A stretch of 7,842 bases of DNA from the IMG/VR virus record IMGVR_UViG_2541047931_000013. One strand, written 5' to 3'. The notes below the pieces were generated by a model that was not told the DNA's origin, did not search any database, and worked only from the letters and a program-made list of their open reading frames with translations. Numbering within the stretch: position 1 is the stretch's first letter; every line of letters starts with the position of its first letter. This stretch comes from a virus (Duplodnaviria; Heunggongvirae; Uroviricota; Caudoviricetes). Positions 1-7,748 of the stretch are shown in pieces. Both the position numbers and the translations under genes were made by a program.

Positions 1-651
1 GTGAACAACATCTTGAGAAAATCGCCAATCGAACGGCTTTGTTCATCTGTATCGATTACCCCTCATGAAATGGCTGTGGCCTTGGCTGGCCTAAACCCAT
101 CTATGCGCATTAGCGATGTGCCTGAGGAAAATTTCGAATATGTCGATTTTGTCAGAACTCATCTTGCCAGAGCTATCAAGGTGTACAGAGGTGAAAAAAC
201 TAGTAAAGACGAGCCTTGCCATGCCCTTGATATTTTCTTAGCTTCTTACCCATTTATTGACACAAATACACCAGAAATAATTGTTCAGAAAATATCAGAA
301 GCGATTGATGATTTGCGTGGCACCAAGGGCTGGGAAGAAAAAGCCCGAAACCTTGGAGGACTCCAGTTAGTAAACTACATCAAAGAAACCAACCGCAGCG
401 GACGTGGGCAGCATAGAAAGCAGGATGAGGAAAACGGGACAATGAAAATGATGGGGTTGATAGTACATCTGCTGATAAAAAAATCAGGCTCATCTTCCTA
501 CATCCAAAATGGGAAACCTAATCGCACAGCTATATACCGTGACATAGAAACCTTAATCAAGGATGAAGGGATATCCCATAAAGGAATAGCAAAAGCCACA
601 TTCCTAGAAAAAATCTCACGGGCTTTATTAGCTGTCCACGATCTCGACTAA
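1..651 (+). CDS. hypothetical protein, low-GC cargo gene; 5' end probably lies outside the window
   Basis: ORF open from base 1 (GTG) to TAA at 649-651. Sample 60-nt lines hand-count at roughly 30-40% GC versus about 55-63% in the helicase gene. No family recognised by eye. The position upstream of alpA matches the variable cargo slot of integrative islands. Confidence 0.5.
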   Translation: MNNILRKSPIERLCSSVSITPHEMAVALAGLNPSMRISDVPEENFEYVDFVRTHLARAIKVYRGEKTSKDEPCHALDIFLASYPFIDTNTPEIIVQKISEAIDDLRGTKGWEEKARNLGGLQLVNYIKETNRSGRGQHRKQDEENGTMKMMGLIVHLLIKKSGSSSYIQNGKPNRTAIYRDIETLIKDEGISHKGIAKATFLEKISRALLAVHDLD

Positions 652-1123
652 TCACTTTTCACGCCCCTCCAAAGCAATGGCGGGGCATTACCTGTTTACC
701 CATCTCCACCAGCATAGATAATTCTATGCCTAGCCATTGCTATATCTGTTCGGCTTAGTTCATCTGTAATCACCCCATCTCTAAAAGATACGCCAGCTAT
801 CATTAGCCATTTTAAGCCATCATGAGCCATTATAAACCGACTCAACCAATTGAATAATAAAAGATAAAAGGAAATGTAAAAACATGATGAATGACGATGA
901 AAGATATAACTCTTTGATAAAACAATGATTTTTTTAAACTGGTAACTAATTGAAAATAAAGAAAATAATTATCCCACCTGCATTTGCAATCTTTCAGTGG
1001 ATCGGTATTTTTTCAATAGATTTATAATTTCTTTCAATAGATTCTAGTCTTAATAGAAATACTGTATGGGCAACCACTAAACTTTAAGTAACTTCATGAG
1101 CTATCAGAGAGGTTACTAGAGAT
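652..1123. promoter_or_regulatory. AT-rich non-coding control region upstream of the alpA-like gene
   Basis: About 470 bp with no convincing ORF. Four AGC(C/T)AT repeats at exact 10-bp phasing (795-800, 805-810, 815-820, 825-830). Perfect -10 hexamer TATAAT at 1023-1028, flanked by the 12-mer TTTCAATAGATT at 1011-1022 and 1032-1043. SD GAGAGG at 1107-1112 ahead of the ATG at 1124. Confidence 0.4.
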
Positions 1124-1342
1124 ATGACAGCACACAAGCCAGCATCATCAGCTATCCCAACAACTGGATACATCCGTCGCTTTCGCATGCCGGAATTGCT
1201 AGGTGTTTCACTGCCTACTATTGATAGATGGGTTAAAAATGGCACTCTTCCACGCCCAGTGAAGCTAACAGATAACGTGACTGCGTTTGATGCGGTGGAA
1301 ATTAATAACTGGCTGGCAGAACGCCGAAACACATCAGCCTGA
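1124..1342 (+). CDS. alpA: AlpA-family phage transcriptional regulator / excisionase-like (winged-helix) protein
   Basis: 72-aa product with the motif IRRFRMPELLGVSLPTIDRWVKNGTLPRPVKL...DAVEINNWLAER, typical of the AlpA/Vis family. SD AGAGGT lies 10 nt upstream. Size and position are typical for island regulators. Confidence 0.8.
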   Translation: MTAHKPASSAIPTTGYIRRFRMPELLGVSLPTIDRWVKNGTLPRPVKLTDNVTAFDAVEINNWLAERRNTSA

Positions 1343-1416
1343 TTAAATGACTACGGGGGATGACGTTCAACCCCACCAGCAAACAAAAGTAACTTAATTT
1401 AATAGCAGGTGTTTTT

Positions 1417-2115
1417 ATGAAACTGCGAAAAACGCCCGTACAGGGGCAGGGCTTCGTTCGGCCTGAAACCAGCATGAGCGATATTCTGGTTCGCCACAAA
1501 GCGGAGTCGCGCATTGATTCCCGCTTATTTGCTGAGCGTATTGGCATAAAGCACAAAAACCTTTATTCGCTCATTCAGAAGCACAAAACCGGATTGCGTG
1601 AACTGGGCATCCTTCCGTTTCAAACGGAGCGATTAAAAACCCGTCAAAACGGGGAGCGTGAACATAAGTTTGCCCTCCTGAATAGCGATCAGTTTGATTA
1701 CATGTGTCGCATTGTGCGCGGTCGTGATGATGAACGCATGAACCGCTTCAAGCTGGATGTTACGAAGGCATTCGCAAAACATCGCGCTACCGAGCCTGTA
1801 CGCCGTGAATATCTGCCAGGCTATCACGAAAGCCGTGACGGGCTTAAAGCACTGGGCGCAGAACGTCACCATTACATCAATCTGGCACGCGCAGAGAACC
1901 GTGTTACAGGTCTGGTAACTGGCGAACGAGGCACAGCCAGCGAGCAGCAGTTAGGCTTGCTGATTGTCATGCAGAAAATCGAACAGGCCGCATTTGAGGA
2001 GGCGATACAGAACGGCATGACACCTACCGAAGCAGTGCGGGAGGTTGCCCGACGCATGGAGACATTCGCCAGCCTGATGACATCTGAGCCGTATCTGGGG
2101 GTAAATCATGCTTAA
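1417..2115 (+). CDS. Rha-family phage regulatory protein (antirepressor-type)
   Basis: N-terminal IDSRLFAERIGIKHKNLYSLIQKH...EHKFALLNSDQFDYMCRIV...RFKLDVTKAFAKH fits the Rha (Phage_pRha) pattern. SD AGGTG lies 5 nt upstream of the ATG. The stop overlaps the next start (ATGCTTAA). Confidence 0.7.
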   Translation: MKLRKTPVQGQGFVRPETSMSDILVRHKAESRIDSRLFAERIGIKHKNLYSLIQKHKTGLRELGILPFQTERLKTRQNGEREHKFALLNSDQFDYMCRIVRGRDDERMNRFKLDVTKAFAKHRATEPVRREYLPGYHESRDGLKALGAERHHYINLARAENRVTGLVTGERGTASEQQLGLLIVMQKIEQAAFEEAIQNGMTPTEAVREVARRMETFASLMTSEPYLGVNHA

Positions 2116-2449
2116 GGATTTCGCCGCAATTATTCCGGTATCACCTGGCATTATTGGCGGACATGAAACAGCCATTGTCAGCGCCAGAGCGTTACATAAG
2201 GCGCTTGGTGTGAAGCGTGATTTCACTACATGGATTAAAGGGCGTATTGATCAGTACGGATTTAAAAATGGCGTGGATTTTGAGTTTGTAGAAAATTTGA
2301 CCTCCCCCAATCCGGTGAGCGCAAAATCTCGCCAACGTGTAGAGCACGACTACCTGAGTACCATCAACATGGCGAAAGAACTTGCGATGGTCGAGCGTAC
2401 CGAACAGGGCCGCGCTATTCGTCAGTACTTCATCAAATGCGAGGAGTAG
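2108..2449 (+). CDS. AntA/AntB-type antirepressor, N-terminal domain only (ends at an in-frame TAG)
   Basis: ARALHKALGVKRDFTTWIKGRIDQYGFKNGVDFEF ... MAKELAMVERTEQGRAIRQYFIKCEE matches the AntA domain. SD GGGGG lies 6 nt upstream. The frame continues into ORF 2468-2851 after a single TAG. Confidence 0.7.
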   Translation: MLKDFAAIIPVSPGIIGGHETAIVSARALHKALGVKRDFTTWIKGRIDQYGFKNGVDFEFVENLTSPNPVSAKSRQRVEHDYLSTINMAKELAMVERTEQGRAIRQYFIKCEE

Positions 2450-2467
2450 CTACACAAAGTAGCGCCA

Positions 2468-2851
2468 GTGCGTTCCGCAGCGTTACGCCGTGAACTGAAA
2501 GCCCGTATCACCGTTGCCAGCTACTTTAAGCCGATGTGTGCCGCGCTGGAGGCGTACCGCGCTGAACTGGGTAAAAACACGCTCCAGCACCACTACACCA
2601 CGGAAGCCAATATGCTGGCGCGTATCGTGCTGGGTGGCATGAATGCAAAACAGTGGGCGCAGGCGAACGGCATCACAGGCGAACCACGCGACCACATGAG
2701 CACGCTGCAGCTTGAGCACCTTTCTTACCTTGAGCAGAGCAATATCACGCTGATTGAGTTAGGCCAGGACTACCACCAGCGGAAAGCTGAATTAATTCGT
2801 CTTTCGCAACGCTGGTTAGCCCGCCGCATGGAGGTGAGCAGCCATGCGTAA
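2468..2851 (+). CDS. antirepressor C-terminal-domain protein; probably the C-terminal half of the AntA-like gene split by an amber codon
   Basis: Same reading frame as 2108-2449 (2468 minus 2108 = 360). EANMLARIVLGGMNAKQWAQANGI...RDHMSTLQLEHLSYLEQSNITLIELGQ resembles the C-terminal region shared by phage antirepressors. Own start is a GTG with no SD at proper spacing. Confidence 0.5.
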   Translation: MRSAALRRELKARITVASYFKPMCAALEAYRAELGKNTLQHHYTTEANMLARIVLGGMNAKQWAQANGITGEPRDHMSTLQLEHLSYLEQSNITLIELGQDYHQRKAELIRLSQRWLARRMEVSSHA

Positions 2852-3401
2852 ACCTGTCTTTTATGCCGGTCGCACTGAAATCTCTGTCATTAAATTCGAT
2901 GACATTCAGGTGCGCATAGTGAGTATCAACGGCGAGCCGTGGTTTGTTGGCGCTGATGTGTGTGCCGCGCTGGAAATCAGCAATGTTACTGATGCCGTTT
3001 CAGTTCTGGATAACGATGAGGTAATGACCCTAGCTTTAACCGAGGGTCATTCCGGTAAGCGTGGTGGTGCCAGAAGCTGGAATGTTGTCTCTGAATCAGG
3101 TTTCTACAAACTGATCGCCCGCAGCCGTAAAGCTTCCACACCAGGCACATTTGCGCACCGTTTCAGTAACTGGGTATTCCGCGAGGTGATTCCTTCAATC
3201 CGCAAAACGGGGGGTTATGGTGTTCCGTTTGCCATGCTGAATGATTTCAGTAAACGTCAGGCTGCATATCAACAGGAAGCCAGCAAACGCGGTTACAGGT
3301 TACAGCAATGCAAAGAGGCAAAAGATGCACTGGAACGAGAAGAGCGGGCGCTATGGCGTAAATATCAGCCTGATTTTCTGGAGGGTGAAAGCAATGTGTA
3401 A
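2844..3401 (+). CDS. Bro-N domain protein (phage antirepressor-like)
   Basis: VIKFDDIQVRIVSINGEPWFVGADVCAALEI...FYKLIARSRKASTPGTFAHRFSNWVFREVIPSIRKTGGY is the Bro-N signature. SD GGAGGTG lies 7 nt upstream. The ATG overlaps the previous stop. Confidence 0.75.
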   Translation: MRKPVFYAGRTEISVIKFDDIQVRIVSINGEPWFVGADVCAALEISNVTDAVSVLDNDEVMTLALTEGHSGKRGGARSWNVVSESGFYKLIARSRKASTPGTFAHRFSNWVFREVIPSIRKTGGYGVPFAMLNDFSKRQAAYQQEASKRGYRLQQCKEAKDALEREERALWRKYQPDFLEGESNV

Positions 3402-4431
3402 CGATCCGAACGTTACAGAAAGAAAAAGCGCCCCGTTGCTGGATAACAGGCAAAACAAAGGCGACCGGGATAGGTCGCCAGTGGGAACAAAGGAAATCAA
3501 ACGCATCGCCAACAATGCCAGATTTGCGGCTGGTGGGCAATGTGATCAGTGTGCTGGCTTGCTGGTGGGCTATTCCTGCTCTTTAGCATCGCCATACTGC
3601 GATGTTTTCCAGGTATGCGATTCCATTTTTGTGCGCCTGTACTCTTTTAAGAACTTCTCAAGGACAAACGCACATGGCGCAAATCTTTCCTGTTCTTGTT
3701 CGCTTACCGCATTTTTGCGTTGTTTTTTCCTGGATGAGGATAATTTCTTTAATGATTTGTCAGTCATCGTAGATACCTGTAACCCTGTGCGCCACAGTTC
3801 ACCGCACCACGGCGCTGGTGATGGTTACTCCTGCTCTTTGGCCTTCCGGCGCTGTTCATATTTTAATTTGCGTCCACAGGCATCTAAGACCCATGCGGAA
3901 AAATTAGCACTAGGATTAGTTAATTTTTCTTGTTCAACACTGGCATCAATCCCATCTATAAGCTCGTGCGGGAATCGAATATTTTTCTTTGCTGATTTGT
4001 TGTTTGTGTTTCCGCTAGACATTGGTACACCTCACTTAAATGGATTTGATGGGCGCACACAATACAGCAAAAAAAGTGAGAAGTTAAGTATTGACATGTG
4101 CGCACACATGATTTTAATCTGTGCGCACAGTTTGGGTTGCATTGCTCAAATTAAGCAACGCCCCGCAGTGCTCGCAACACATGCAGGGCGTCTAACCACC
4201 AACGATAGAAAGCGTATCGAGGTAGCTATGTTAAATCATACCACACACCCGCAAGGGCGGGACTCGCACAACCTGAATAAATACATCTGGCGTTTTATCG
4301 CCCTGAGCACCGCACAACCACGCGTAATACACATCGAGGCCGCCAGCGAACAGGAAGCCCGTCAGCAATCCCCGGCTGGCTGCGTGATGGTATTTACTGC
4401 CCGCATCCGTCAGGGGGAATACTATGCGTGA
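3394..4431 (+). CDS. alternative model: long + strand ORF (345 aa), possibly a shadow of - strand genes; mutually exclusive with the - strand small ORFs and with the 4228 start
   Basis: ATG at 3394 with SD GGAGGG 8 nt upstream, overlapping the Bro-N stop (ATGTGTAA). Frame open for 345 codons. The product is about 5% Cys and F/S/L-rich in its middle part, which looks like antisense translation of K/E/A-rich coding. Confidence 0.25.
   Translation: MCNDPNVTERKSAPLLDNRQNKGDRDRSPVGTKEIKRIANNARFAAGGQCDQCAGLLVGYSCSLASPYCDVFQVCDSIFVRLYSFKNFSRTNAHGANLSCSCSLTAFLRCFFLDEDNFFNDLSVIVDTCNPVRHSSPHHGAGDGYSCSLAFRRCSYFNLRPQASKTHAEKLALGLVNFSCSTLASIPSISSCGNRIFFFADLLFVFPLDIGTPHLNGFDGRTQYSKKSEKLSIDMCAHMILICAHSLGCIAQIKQRPAVLATHAGRLTTNDRKRIEVAMLNHTTHPQGRDSHNLNKYIWRFIALSTAQPRVIHIEAASEQEARQQSPAGCVMVFTARIRQGEYYA
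3445..3479 (-). terminator. putative Rho-independent terminator for - strand transcripts
   Basis: Perfect 7-bp GC-rich stem GGCGACC (3460-3466) / GGTCGCC (3473-3479) with 6-nt loop. On the - strand it is followed by UUUGUUUUG. No T-tract on the + strand side. Confidence 0.4.
3570..3767 (-). CDS. small basic protein (65 aa), paralog B of a tandemly duplicated pair; possible DNA-binding protein
   Basis: ATG at 3767-3765 with AGGT 7 nt upstream. C-terminal AKEQE shared with the 3825-4022 product. An interrupted inverted repeat CTGTG-CGC-CACAG (3785-3797) lies just upstream. Confidence 0.35.
   Translation of the reverse strand: MTDKSLKKLSSSRKKQRKNAVSEQEQERFAPCAFVLEKFLKEYRRTKMESHTWKTSQYGDAKEQE
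3825..4022 (-). CDS. small protein (65 aa), paralog A; putative ribbon-helix-helix-like repressor divergent from the replication operon
   Basis: ATG at 4022-4020 with GAGGTG SD 5 nt upstream. KNIRFPHELIDGID...NFSAWVLDACGRKL has a strand-helix-helix layout resembling CopG/Arc-type proteins. Candidate -10 TATTGT / -35 TTAACT on the - strand at 4059-4064 / 4082-4087. Confidence 0.4.
   Translation of the reverse strand: MSSGNTNNKSAKKNIRFPHELIDGIDASVEQEKLTNPSANFSAWVLDACGRKLKYEQRRKAKEQE
4053..4130. promoter_or_regulatory. back-to-back divergent sigma70-like promoters overlapped by palindromic operator-like sites
   Basis: + strand: -35 TTGACA (4091-4096), 16-bp spacer, -10 TTTAAT (4113-4118). Perfect palindromes TGTGCGCACA (4097-4106, in the spacer) and CTGTGCGCACAG (4119-4130, over the predicted start). 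Half-site GCGCACA at 4053-4059 overlaps the predicted - strand start. Confidence 0.5.
4228..4431 (+). CDS. small protein (67 aa), first gene of the replication operon; possibly Icd-like (unverified recollection)
   Basis: ATG at 4228 with SD GAGGT 4 nt upstream. Product MLNHTTHPQGRDSHNLNKYIWRFIALSTAQPRVIHIEAASEQEARQQ... has ordinary composition. Its stop overlaps the next start. About 100 nt downstream of the predicted + promoter. Confidence 0.45.
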   Translation: MLNHTTHPQGRDSHNLNKYIWRFIALSTAQPRVIHIEAASEQEARQQSPAGCVMVFTARIRQGEYYA

Positions 4432-4681
4432 TGAACGATTTATTCTTCTGGAGCAAAAATTCAGTGAAGCGCCAAAAAATGAAATTGATGCTCTTTTGCA
4501 TATCGCGAATATGCTAAAAGTAGCAACGTTCCTTATAGTTTCGAATCTGGAGCATGAAACGGCGTTAGATATACTGAACAGTGCTGTCGATTATTCTGAA
4601 TATATTGCCGAGGATAAATACAGGCAATTACCAGATTTGTTAGCCCATAAATATAAAGAAGAACCTCACACCGGGAAATAA
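4424..4681 (+). CDS. hypothetical protein (85 aa), low-GC
   Basis: ATG at 4424 with SD AGGGGG 6 nt upstream, overlapping the upstream stop. Sample lines hand-count at roughly 35-38% GC. No family recognised. Confidence 0.55.
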   Translation: MRDERFILLEQKFSEAPKNEIDALLHIANMLKVATFLIVSNLEHETALDILNSAVDYSEYIAEDKYRQLPDLLAHKYKEEPHTGK

Positions 4682-4683
4682 AC

Positions 4684-4986
4684 ATGAAGAAGATTAAATT
4701 TACTGGCTTAAATGCCAGCGGACAGACTCACCCGAAAATCAGGATCGGGGATATTTTCCGGGATAAATATGGTGACAGCGTGGTTATTAATTCCGTGTAT
4801 GAACGGCACATTACATACCGCCGCGCAGGGTACGACTATGACTGTGTGATGCCCGTTCATCAGTTCCGGCGTGATTTTTCACTGGTATGTGCAGCACCAC
4901 GCAGTAAGCCCACCAGTAAAGAGAAAGCACGGGCAAATATTCAGGTAATAAAGAACATGATTAACGCATTCAGGGGCAAGAAATGA
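4684..4986 (+). CDS. hypothetical protein (100 aa), low-GC; possibly DUF4222-like (unverified)
   Basis: ATG 2 nt after the upstream stop; weak SD GGGAA. Its stop overlaps the helicase start (ATGA). IGDIFRDKYGDSVVINSVYERHITYRRAGYDYDCVMPVHQFRRDF is vaguely familiar from small proteins next to island primase genes. Confidence 0.55.
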   Translation: MKKIKFTGLNASGQTHPKIRIGDIFRDKYGDSVVINSVYERHITYRRAGYDYDCVMPVHQFRRDFSLVCAAPRSKPTSKEKARANIQVIKNMINAFRGKK

Positions 4987-7109
4987 AACGCGCACCGAAT
5001 TTAAAGCACCAGCCGAAAGACAAAATGACGGAGGTGATTATCTTTGCGGGTAGTGATGCCTGGGCACATGCGAAAGAGTGGAGCGAATGGGCCGGAAAGC
5101 ATATTGCGGCAGATGATACACATCCAGTTATTCTTGGACCGGAACAACTGGCGAGTCTGGCAGACACGCAAATCATCGACAAAGGGCGCTATTACGTGCG
5201 CGTTTATCGTGCTGGTGAAATATCAGAGCAGCACCTTACACAGATAGCGACACTGCTTGCAGTGGCGGGTGTGAAGGAGGCGCGTTGCTACCGCAGCTTT
5301 GTTGATCAGCAGCCGGAGGACTGGACACCGCGCATGGCTGGACTGAAGGATGATGCGGAACGCGGTAACAGTCTGGTGATCAACCTTCCGGCGAAGACAA
5401 ATTTCACCGGAAATTATGATGACGAATTAAAGCCTCGTGTTGAAAGTCGCGTCGATGGTGTTTTCTGGGTAACGCCCAAAGTGGACAAGCAGTCAGGCGA
5501 AATTATCCGGCCTGAGACGTGGTTATGTTCTCCGCTTGAACTACTGGGAACAGGAACAATCGGCAAAGAGCATTACCGCGTGATGCGCTGGAAAAAACCA
5601 GCAAACCATGAGGTCATTACAATGGCGGTCCCGTGCGGAGGCATTGGTGACCGTGACGGCTGGCGGTTGCTGAAAGACCACGGCCTTAACGTGACGACCA
5701 ACGGCAAATACAGGGCTATCTTGGCTGACTGGATGCAGTTAAGCGGAAACCATGAGGAATGGCAGTTAAGCACAACAACGGGGTGGCATTTTGGTGCGTA
5801 CATCATGCCGGATGGTTCGATCATCGGTGAATCAGAGAAACCCATCCTGTTTACCGGAAAAACTGCCGCTGTTAATGGCTATTCCGTGGCGGGAACAGCG
5901 GAGGGCTGGCGCGATACCGTGGCACGGCTGGCTGGTGGTAATCCGTCCATGATGCTGGGTGTGGCGGTATCGCTATCTGCACCATTAATCGGGCTGGTGG
6001 GTGCTGACGGCTTCGGGGTTCATCTTTTTGAGCAATCATCAGCAGGTAAAACCACCACACAGAACATTGCATCAAGTTTATGGGGAGAGCCGGACGCGCA
6101 ACGGCTGACCTGGTACGGAACGGCGTTAGGTATCGCCAACGAGGCCGAAGCACATAATGACGGGCTGTTACCCCTGGATGAAATAGGCCAGGCCGGAAAC
6201 GCACGGGAGGTGTCCACGTCAGCCTATACGCTGTTTAACGGTTCCGGGAAATTACAGGGGGCGAAGGACGGCGGCAACAGGGAGATAAAACACTGGCGTA
6301 CGGTGGCAATCAGCACCGGAGAAATGGACGTTGAAACATTCCTCAAAACGGAAGGGATAAAAATTAAAGCGGGACAGCTTGTCCGTCTGCTTAACGTACC
6401 GATGGAAAAGGCCTCGCAGTTTCACGAATACAGCACCGGAAAGGCGCACGCAGACGCGTTAAAAGATGCCTGGACAGAAAATCACGGGGCGGCAGGTCGT
6501 GAGTGGGTTAAATGGCTGGCAGGCCACCAGCAGGAGGCAAAGGACGCGGTAAGGGCATGTCGCGAGCGGTGGCGCAACCTGATACCGGAGAGCTACGGCG
6601 AGCAGGTTCACCGTGTGGGGGAAAGATTCGCCGTACTGGAGGCCGCGCTTGTGCTTTCCGGTCATGTTACAGGCTGGGATGTTCAGGCGTGCCGTGATGC
6701 AGTTCAGCATAACTTTAATGCCTGGGTGAAGGAATTCGGCACGGGCAACAGGGAATTTAAACAGATGGTTGAACAGGCTGAGGCGTTTTTGTCGTCGTTC
6801 GGGTTCAGTCGATACCTTCCCTATCCAAACAGCGACGAGCGTGATTTACCGATTAAAGACCTTGCCGGATACAGAAAGGGGAGTATCAGAAACGAAGATG
6901 ACGAGTTCCGTTTTTACACGTTCCCGCATGTGTTTGAGGGTGAGATAGCACAGGGATTTAATCCGTCTCACTTTGCCCGCGCGTTGAGTGCAGCCGGAAT
7001 GCTGGAAGCGGGAGGCGACCGCCGTTACAAGAAAAAGGCGCTCGGCAGGATTGGCGGGAAGCAGCATATTTTTTACGTGCTGATGTTCCAGCCTGAAGCA
7101 GAAGATTAA
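4983..7109 (+). CDS. replication primase/helicase-like protein (P4 alpha-like / DUF927-type, SF3-type P-loop NTPase)
   Basis: 708-aa ORF at about 55-63% GC. Walker A-like FEQSSAGKTT (about 6021-6059) and Walker B-like LLPLDEIGQ (about 6160-6190). SD AGGGG lies 6 nt upstream. Overall resemblance to replication proteins of enterobacterial integrative elements. Confidence 0.85.
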   Translation: MKRAPNLKHQPKDKMTEVIIFAGSDAWAHAKEWSEWAGKHIAADDTHPVILGPEQLASLADTQIIDKGRYYVRVYRAGEISEQHLTQIATLLAVAGVKEARCYRSFVDQQPEDWTPRMAGLKDDAERGNSLVINLPAKTNFTGNYDDELKPRVESRVDGVFWVTPKVDKQSGEIIRPETWLCSPLELLGTGTIGKEHYRVMRWKKPANHEVITMAVPCGGIGDRDGWRLLKDHGLNVTTNGKYRAILADWMQLSGNHEEWQLSTTTGWHFGAYIMPDGSIIGESEKPILFTGKTAAVNGYSVAGTAEGWRDTVARLAGGNPSMMLGVAVSLSAPLIGLVGADGFGVHLFEQSSAGKTTTQNIASSLWGEPDAQRLTWYGTALGIANEAEAHNDGLLPLDEIGQAGNAREVSTSAYTLFNGSGKLQGAKDGGNREIKHWRTVAISTGEMDVETFLKTEGIKIKAGQLVRLLNVPMEKASQFHEYSTGKAHADALKDAWTENHGAAGREWVKWLAGHQQEAKDAVRACRERWRNLIPESYGEQVHRVGERFAVLEAALVLSGHVTGWDVQACRDAVQHNFNAWVKEFGTGNREFKQMVEQAEAFLSSFGFSRYLPYPNSDERDLPIKDLAGYRKGSIRNEDDEFRFYTFPHVFEGEIAQGFNPSHFARALSAAGMLEAGGDRRYKKKALGRIGGKQHIFYVLMFQPEAED

Positions 7110-7319: not shown

Positions 7320-7748
7320 ATGACGGCGCAAATATCAGCTTACGGGCGGCTGGTGGCTGACCCGCAGTTAAAGACCACCAGCAAGGGCACACAAATGGCG
7401 ATGGCGAGTATGGCGGTCCCCCTTCCATGCAATCAGACAGATGACGGAACGGCGACGATGTGGTTATCCGTCCTGGCGTTTGGCAGACAGGCTGACGCAC
7501 TGGCAAAACACCACAAAGGCGAACTGGTGAGCGTGGCCGGTAACATGCAGGTGAGCCGGTGGACGGGCCAGAACGGCGAAACGAGGCAGGGATGGCAGGT
7601 TATCGCAGACAGCGTAATCAGTGCGCGAACGGCGCGACCGGGCGGCAAAAAAGGCCAGCAGGGGCAGGCTACTGATGCACTGAACAGGGCAAAGCAACAG
7701 ACAGGCCAGCACGATGATCTGAACCGCCCCGGGAATCCTGGAGACTAA
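7320..7748 (+). CDS. SSB-like (OB-fold single-stranded DNA-binding) protein, 3' end disrupted by IS insertion; native sequence ends at 7719
   Basis: AYGRLVADPQLKTTSKGTQMAMASMAV...WLSVLAFGRQADALAKHHKGELVSVAGNMQVSRWTGQNGETRQGWQV matches the SSB OB-fold pattern. SD GGAGA lies 9 nt upstream. From codon 134 the ORF reads into the IS inverted repeat and stops at 7746-7748. Confidence 0.7.
   Translation: MTAQISAYGRLVADPQLKTTSKGTQMAMASMAVPLPCNQTDDGTATMWLSVLAFGRQADALAKHHKGELVSVAGNMQVSRWTGQNGETRQGWQVIADSVISARTARPGGKKGQQGQATDALNRAKQQTGQHDDLNRPGNPGD

Follow-up and report, generated by a model that had tools for sequence, protein, structure and literature searches.

A stretch of viral DNA of 7,842 nucleotides (IMG/VR record IMGVR_UViG_2541047931_000013; hereafter the window, meaning the whole stretch that was analysed) carries three consecutive genes with Rha-like, AntA-like and Bro-N domains behind alpA. 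An initial annotation described the three as antirepressor-type, and this raises the question of what such a set of genes does for the element that carries it. Judged by its gene content, the window is an EcCIMP1-like satellite island of the phage-inducible chromosomal island (PICI) type at yicC/dinD in E. coli. The reading that we favour, with confidence and doubt in about equal measure, is that the three genes form the "Bro zone" of this Gram-negative PICI-type satellite and most likely encode dimeric, sequence-specific DNA-binding regulators made together with AlpA. The genes and their junctions are as follows.

1417-2115, plus strand: Rha-family gene, 232 residues (Pfam Phage_pRha, 31.0 bits, residues 33-120)
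2108-2115, plus strand: overlap of the Rha stop and the AntA start in the sequence, 8 nucleotides (ATGCTTAA)
2108-2449, plus strand: 5' part of the AntA-family gene, AntA head only, 113 residues (Pfam AntA, 84.3 bits), ended by a premature TAG
2447-2449, plus strand: in-frame nonsense codon TAG (E113*), where relatives have GAG
2468-2851, plus strand: 3' part of the AntA-family gene in the same frame, an open reading frame (ORF) of 127 residues with an all-helical C-terminal domain; no Pfam match
2844-2851, plus strand: overlap of the AntA stop and the Bro start in the sequence, 8 nucleotides (ATGCGTAA)
2844-3401, plus strand: Bro-N gene, 185 residues (Pfam Bro-N, 65.9 bits; phrog_2593, 5e-55)

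The family assignments of the initial annotation are borne out by a Pfam search with profile hidden Markov models (HMMs), in which all three scores exceed the curated cut-offs, and PHROGs agree with the Pfam family of each gene. NCBIfam has no model that matches any of the three proteins. The Rha protein consists of a disordered leader (residues 1-20, GQGF..PE.S.SDI), a pRha head at about 24-100, a long helix and a helical C-terminal domain (C-domain) at about 105-222 that resembles DdrC. The Bro protein has its Bro-N head at residues 22-117, followed by a C-terminal tail of about 60 residues without a Pfam match. All three genes are real and conserved, the identical Rha protein being present on at least 1000 contigs and the identical Bro protein on 732 contigs. 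Three gene families do stand in a row as described, but they occupy four ORFs, the AntA-like gene being split by the TAG at 2447-2449, which had been missed. The phrog_5817 match of the ORF at 2108-2449 covers only profile positions 12-110 of 210.

Both junctions within the trio are 8-nucleotide ATGCNTAA overlaps, as expected from the overlapping stop and start codons noted earlier, and the overlap at 2108-2115 suggests translational coupling of Rha and AntA. The chain of overlaps runs past 3401, an ATG at 3394 (ATGTGTAA) overlapping the Bro stop codon, and nearly the whole stretch from Rha to the primase gene may be a single translationally coupled chain. On the upstream side, Rha is indeed the next gene after alpA and lies on the same strand, but a 74-nucleotide gap rather than an overlap separates the two. 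A promoter and terminator scan of this gap found none. Because of this gap without a detected promoter or terminator, together with the chain of 8-nucleotide overlaps that leads through the Icd-like and primase genes, co-production of the trio with AlpA is probable. As a separate aspect of its layout, the island reuses an 8-nucleotide start/stop overlap, ATGNNTAA or ATGNNTGA, at junctions 2108, 2844, 3394 and 4424, and many island proteins end in ..HA or ..YA because of this recurring overlap. The DUF4222 and primase genes overlap by ATGA.

An E. coli chromosomal island, that of strain M21170 (locus L001), is 99.5% identical to the window. It lies between yicC and dinD, the part that corresponds to the window standing behind a tyrosine integrase gene immediately upstream, and measures about 19-20 kb from int to the last island gene. 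Its gene order is int, a hypothetical gene, alpA, Rha/AntA/Bro, two small minus-strand genes (one of the YlcI/YnfO family), Icd-like, DUF4222, DUF927 primase, SSB, ProQ/FinO, PerC and cargo, and no structural or lysis genes are annotated in it. Both its gene content and its size agree with the definition of Gram-negative PICIs applied here, namely int, alpA and primase or replication genes, without structural or lysis genes, in about 10-20 kb. Experiments on EcCIMP1, a PICI of E. coli MP1, showed that its induction, excision and transduction by phage Kapi1 are controlled by AlpA (PMC11773190). The two islands have in common the order int, alpA, AntA/AntB-family gene, DUF4222, icd-like, DUF927-type primase and PerC, and the 277-residue "antirepressor" of EcCIMP1 has the same AntA head and C-domain as the broken gene of the window (phmmer, 7e-34 and 6e-52). 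However, EcCIMP1 has one such gene, without Rha or Bro-N, its site is tRNA-Thr, and its DNA is about 70% identical over parts. The earlier description of a satellite-like element is supported by this architecture and by the lack of annotated structural and lysis genes in the M21170 island.

Gram-negative PICIs have been described as having four ordered zones, with Phage_pRha, AntA and Bro-N among the marker Pfam families and with a Bro zone that undergoes domain swapping (PMC10111431, NAR Genom Bioinform 2023). BRO, AntA/AntB and Rha genes are also listed in a 2026 survey of Enterobacter satellites. The trio agrees with the Bro zone of PICIs and HE-PICIs in its position between int/alpA and primase/SSB, where the genes are co-oriented, in its Pfam families and in its dynamism; in addition, a long Ash/Eta-like ORF adjoins the zone in relatives. 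It differs in that this island is located at yicC/dinD, gives no Rfam match to a C4/isrK immunity RNA and carries three Bro-network genes, whereas the relatives sampled carry 0-2. Because the Bro zone has already been described with these families, the trio exemplifies a known feature, one that is widespread among the phage satellites of enterobacteria. Novelty is low, since the arrangement is published and RefSeq already uses these family names. No functional test of an enterobacterial PICI Bro-zone gene was found in the literature reviewed for this feature.

The dynamism of the zone is seen in cassettes that swap at gene boundaries and in fusions of one C-domain to four different heads. Sister islands with the same backbone and site carry either Rha, a T5orf172-GIY-YIG protein of 258 residues and Bro, or AntA (274 residues) and Bro without Rha, and the diversified set of the initial annotation is thereby substantiated. 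Compared with the Rha-T5orf172-Bro variant (L002), the window shows about 99.8% identity as far as the Rha stop at 2115, no relationship over 2116-2806 and identity again from 2807, and the overlap at 2108-2115 is the exact recombination breakpoint. The last 45 or so nucleotides of the AntA gene (from 2807) are common to the T5orf172 cassette, and its last 14-21 or so residues are kept; because identity resumes at 2807, the T5orf172 protein ends with the AntA tail ...QRWLARxMEVSSHA. Against the AntA-Bro variant, the breakpoints are 1475 and 2369, and the AntA protein of this variant starts with the first 17 Rha residues because identity stops at 1475. The alpA and primase regions are about 99% identical while the cassettes are swapped or lost. 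The T5orf172/MUG113 (GIY-YIG-type) replacement gene was observed at L002 5107-5883 in E. coli strain 3908 and in at least seven other genomes.

The full trio is uncommon. Among 5426 complete genomes, 10 match the window over 80% or more of positions 1100-4700, and 1545 have some related piece. Islands of other genera with related primases carry none or one such gene, as exemplified by AntA with the C-domain in two Rahnella islands, Bro in Pectobacterium and Rha with KilAC in Winslowiella. Rha orthologues are found at 61-99% identity across Enterobacterales, and the inspected Rha contigs of the Morganella, Klebsiella and E. coli types have the order int, hypothetical gene, alpA, (small hypothetical gene), Rha, AntA or DUF4222, a long Phage_ASH ORF, small genes and primase. 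A tblastn search against phages gave only distant relatives, below 60% identity except for Edwardsiella phage EPP-1 (63%, AntA), and no donor or helper phage could be named.

The Rha and AntA proteins have in common a helical C-domain that carries no annotation. The 127-residue ORF matches the C-terminal half of phrog_2657, and the Rha protein matches its N-terminal two-thirds. In a HMMER scan of 1.84 billion representative sequences, only 258 clusters have the C-domain. Among 105 full-length matches, the N-terminal Pfam head is Phage_pRha in 46, AntA in 24, KilA-N in 23 and Bro-N in 3, and because four head families occur, one C-terminal module is joined to interchangeable heads. AlphaFold2 gives a confident six-helix model of the C-domain (pLDDT 95.9) and a two-domain model of Rha (pLDDT 77.6) with a disordered 20-residue leader, and the alignment behind the Rha model held none of the proteins behind the C-domain model. 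DdrC is the only strong structural match of both models, and the predicted structures have the DdrC-like fold and the architecture of a head, a long helix and a bundle. There is good evidence from these models that Rha and AntA share one fold, the link between their C-domains being drawn from profile methods and structure.

DdrC of Deinococcus radiodurans (PDB 7qvb, 7udi, 8u0g) dimerises by domain swapping through its corresponding domain, and the groove that lines the dimer is basic and binds DNA (PMC9303277, PMC11347143). It has been reported to have no identifiable sequence homologues outside Deinococcus, and phage relatives are not mentioned (PMC11347143). The sequence match to DdrC falls on the most conserved motif of the C-domain family, NRxVLG...RDxLT..L.LAY, which aligns with DdrC 153-191, and four basic residues that the C-domain conserves (R13, R74, R105 and K106) are compatible with a domain-swapped homodimer that has basic DNA-binding grooves. 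Searches of PDB sequences with Rha and Bro gave no match, the ubiquitin matches obtained with a mixed-domain profile were rejected as spurious, and the only additions from a fold search of BFVD were KilA-N proteins and a small number of viral proteins without names. DdrC differs from the window proteins in being a chromosomal, DNA-damage-induced nucleoid protein. The evidence that the C-domain is truly homologous to DdrC is moderate. We regard it as a tentative and rather doubtful proposal that the C-domain is a true DdrC homologue, in which case DdrC would be a domesticated phage "Bro-network" protein and, conversely, the satellite and phage proteins would be domain-swapped dimers of the DdrC type. 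Such proteins, if they are of this type, might recognise DNA nicks, ends or topology, for example intermediates of helper replication or packaging, with the swappable head adding specificity.

The middle gene of the trio is broken in the window. The antA/AntB gene of M21170 is intact (744 nucleotides, 247 residues) and has GAG at codon 113. WP_050436474.1 is an example of the intact 247-residue allele. A 71-nucleotide probe across the stop codon found the junction in 80 complete E. coli genomes, none of which has TAG (0/80), the best match being 70/71. The exact 113-residue product (ERB24868.1) occurs on 13 contigs and the 127-residue product (ERB24869.1) on 5, the strain being E. coli UMEA 3271-1, and the intact AntA protein occurs on at least 730 contigs. 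Because TAG is found in 0/80 genomes and on 13 contigs against at least 730, the middle gene of the window is a recently truncated copy, and E113* is, from these sequence counts, a rare and recent allele private to a minor lineage. A programmed read-through of the TAG or a functional split of the gene was rejected as the default explanation, GAG being present in 80/80 genomes and no ribosome-binding site being found before the GTG at 2468. As a side observation, the DdrC-like C-domain also stands alone in proteins of about 157-159 residues without a recognisable head (P0076, P0082, P0090 and P0095), and one cluster of such stand-alone proteins has 383 member sequences. Because these proteins exist, a head-less version of the C-domain can persist, and they bear on whether the 127-residue ORF of the window could remain functional.

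We propose the following mechanism for the trio. The product of each gene would be built of modules, one of them a head of the Rha, AntA or Bro-N type that recognises DNA, and the Rha and AntA proteins would be DdrC-like dimers with differing recognition heads. From EcCIMP1 and other PICIs, we infer that the trio would be made together with AlpA once a helper phage activates the island. The targets would be DNA of the helper phage, of rival elements or of the island, in the manner of CapR of the Vibrio cholerae satellite PLE, a Bro-network protein that represses a helper capsid promoter and is related to the DNA-binding domains of T5orf172 homing nucleases (PMC8096241). CapR resembles the proteins discussed here in being a satellite-encoded Bro-network protein, and sister islands have a T5orf172 cassette in place of AntA; however, host, helper type and island family differ, and no relationship in sequence between CapR and the three proteins was found, nor was one tested for. 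Specificity would be changed by cassette exchange at the conserved junctions, and the AntA member in the window is knocked out or truncated by the recent nonsense mutation.

Several points weigh against this proposal. The Rha score of 31.0 bits is marginal, just above the Phage_pRha cut-off of 29.9 bits. BLASTP gave no match between the C-terminal halves of Rha and AntA, and an hhalign profile-profile comparison of the Rha C-terminus with the C-domain is weak (E 0.0012, probability 19%, with the core HHY..N..NR..G...R..QL). The C-terminal tail of Bro does not match the profile of the shared C-domain; the trio is not uniform, because the Bro-N protein is without this domain. In a search of PDB with an HMM of the C-domain only, DdrC ranked first at a non-significant E of 0.41 (0.8 with a mixed profile). 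Moreover, DdrC binds DNA without sequence specificity, and its winged helix-turn-helix is thought not to touch DNA (DdrC structural papers). No DNA target, operator or binding site of the three proteins was identified, and co-transcription with alpA is read from the gene layout. The individual members of the trio are dispensable, as follows from the 0-2 genes in related islands and from internal stop codons, one in AntA here and another in Bro of strain MS 196-1 (L003).

An antirepressor acts by binding and disabling an immunity repressor; P4 epsilon acts on P2 C in this way, as does RS1 RstC on CTX RstR. An antirepressor module, in which the trio inactivates the immunity repressors of different helper prophages and its diversity widens the helper range, is in our view unlikely here. 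The PHROG and RefSeq names of the trio do say "anti-repressor", AntA-head relatives in Stx2a phages are so annotated at 49% identity, and a Rha-KilAC protein, whose KilAC domain is shared with P1 Ant1, fills the slot in some related islands. Furthermore, the cassette turnover is as expected of an arms race over helper specificity, and a Kapi1-like prophage is present in only 2 of the 21 other EcCIMP1-carrying strains, suggesting several helpers. However, "antirepressor-type" turned out to be a database label only. The window proteins belong with the validated antirepressors P22 Ant and P1 Ant1/Ant2 to the "Bro network", a broad set of regulatory phage domains that are shuffled among proteins, and bear the same database label, but in Pfam P22 Ant consists of P22_AR_N and P22_AR_C and P1 Ant1 of the KilAC/ANT domain only, and none of these domains is present in the window proteins. 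No Pfam domain is common to the three proteins and P22 Ant or P1 Ant1, and in the pairs tested (Bro with P22 Ant, AntA and Bro with P1 Ant1) BLASTP gave E values of 0.07 or higher. KilAC, P22_AR and Phage_ASH (PF10554) were likewise absent from Pfam scans of the trio, P4 epsilon itself not having been compared. BLASTP found no similarity between the window Rha and P22 Rha, which consists of pRha and ORF11CD3 and is not a validated antirepressor. Because the nearest phage relatives are distant, the label derives from family names rather than from tested homology.

The regulation and timing of the trio bear on the same question. The P22 Ant and P1 Ant genes are controlled by Mnt/Arc/sar or c4 RNA. 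In the window, known antirepressor controls of the SOS and antisense-RNA types were not found, and control of the Mnt/Arc type was not searched for. LexA boxes are not above chance (three one-mismatch matches, none near the module, against 2.4 expected), and an Rfam search of the whole window at E<=1 gave no C4, isrK or other RNA; a CRISPR-DR10 match at 656-698 was set aside as chance. The alpA operon of PICIs, to which the trio would belong, is switched on by an already induced helper (PMC11773190), so derepressing the same helper would come too late, although the trio could yet have an effect once the island has been transferred to a new lysogen. This timing suits helper manipulation better than helper waking. 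In addition, the modelled C-domain resembles a DNA binder, and related islands have a separate Ash-family ORF, the Ash-family genes being labelled helper-prophage derepressor in the 2026 survey of Enterobacter satellites. Protein-binding antirepression is therefore, in our judgement, less likely than DNA-binding regulation. An interference or competition module, whose proteins bind, or in the T5orf172 variant cut, helper or rival DNA, is quite unlikely. In sister islands a T5orf172/GIY-YIG nuclease gene with an unchanged 3' tail takes the place of the middle cassette, the PADLOC candidate models PDC-S22 (AntA C-domain, 4e-10) and PDC-S57 (T5orf172 protein, 9e-8) match, and PLE CapR and ICP1 Odn are precedents, the aims being biased packaging or blocked competitors. 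However, no nuclease domain is present in any of the three window proteins, and the PADLOC models are neighbourhood-defined candidates, whose matches may reflect only the defence cargo of the islands and were not accepted as evidence of a defence function. That the trio serves the island's own cycle without a phage target, as an excision accessory, in recognition of the replication origin or in control of the Icd/primase operon, is very unlikely: the apparently tight coupling of translation that leads from Rha, by way of the long frame ending in Icd, into the primase operon and the conserved position between alpA and the replication genes speak for it, but core cis-acting functions would not tolerate swap and loss while the alpA and primase regions are about 99% identical, and many related islands have none of these genes. 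It seems far-fetched that the cassettes are selfish or decaying passengers that spread by their own recombination or homing and are of little use to the island. The nonsense mutation here, the internal Bro stop in MS 196-1, the rarity of the full trio (10/5426 genomes) and a likeness to homing endonucleases noted in the literature (PMC10111431) all point that way, but full-length Rha proteins of 61-99% identity are conserved in many genera and invariably occupy this slot, and intact alleles vastly outnumber broken ones.

The island family is well suited to the functional study of Bro-zone genes, as it provides natural isogenic variants (Rha-AntA-Bro, Rha-T5orf172-Bro, AntA-Bro and the nonsense allele). 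The link to DdrC is a new side lead, and the only one that might surprise a specialist. If true, it would supply a large and uncharacterised class of phage and satellite regulators with a structural and biochemical model, and it would provide an evolutionary origin for DdrC, for which no homologues outside Deinococcus are reported. Junction-to-junction exchange, together with a conserved disordered leader on the first gene, offers a handle on how domain swapping happens. The first Bro-network gene after alpA, whichever its family, carries a similar leader of about 20 residues (..GQGF..PE.S.S.I), as seen at 1417-1485 of the window (Rha), L003 4416-4475 (AntA, E. coli), L013 4507-4580 (Bro, Pectobacterium) and L014 3289-3360 (AntA, Rahnella). 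AlphaFold predicts this leader to be disordered (pLDDT about 33), and a degron, a docking motif and a translation signal are possibilities for its role.

The remaining genes of the window are as follows.

1-651, plus strand: gene of 216 residues, function not assigned (ORF list/annotation)
1124-1342, plus strand: alpA (72 residues), regulator/excisionase-type gene (Pfam Phage_AlpA, 26.4 bits; RefSeq annotation of the 99.5%-identical L001)
3394-4431, plus strand: long frame of 345 codons that ends as the Icd-like gene (its ATG at 3394 in the Bro stop overlap; ORF 3241-4431)
3570-3767 and 3825-4022, minus strand: two genes of 65 residues, 255 nucleotides apart
4228-4431, plus strand: Icd-like gene
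between the Icd-like gene and the primase gene, plus strand: gene of 85 residues, then the DUF4222 gene
4983-7109, plus strand: DUF927 primase
7320-7748, plus strand: SSB

The long frame at 3394-4431 crosses the whole "intergenic" region downstream of Bro, antisense to the two small genes and through the promoter/operator region at 4090-4129, and stands where related islands have their long Phage_ASH/Eta-like ORF. In islands that carry Rha orthologues, this position is taken by a Phage_ASH gene, which forms a long ORF of its own behind the Rha/AntA genes. Similar long frames (232-481 residues) are present in Winslowiella, Rahnella, Pantoea and other loci, and in those checked (L006, L009 and L014) they start at or overlap the stop codon of the upstream Bro-network gene. 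Pfam gave no match to the frame or to its counterparts in other genera; "Ash/Eta-like" is here a matter of position only for this reason. The frame resembles the P4 eta/kil design, but with no Pfam match and no Rfam C4 RNA there.

The two 65-residue genes share their 3' ends (..KEQE) and short repeats (3568-3587/3823-3842 and 3744-3760/3984-4000), which suggests a tandem duplication. Only the second (3825-4022) matches the YlcI/YnfO family (59 bits) and DUF3950. At 3479-3460 there is a strong terminator on the minus strand. At 4090-4129, between the YlcI/YnfO gene and the Icd-like gene, a consensus -35 TTGACA stands ahead of a palindrome, TGTGCGCACA, that is present twice, and from its sequence this region has the look of an island switch that places the primase operon under repressor control. 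Together with the small minus-strand genes, this region forms a second, independent variable block at 3551-4160/4185; the block at 3551-4160 is replaced in sister islands, where identity over part of it is only 69%.

Beyond the window, the distal zone of the M21170 island (L001 24342-31689) holds three large ORFs of 843, 686 and 918 residues that abut or overlap. This cargo is without an assigned function because none of the three has a Pfam or PADLOC match, and it might be a novel defence system. Within the window, the AT-rich region upstream of alpA contains at 1008-1060 two direct repeats TTCAATAGATT, 21 nucleotides apart, and a related TTAATAGAAAT, which flank TATAAT and are candidate binding sites for AlpA or a helper-encoded activator.

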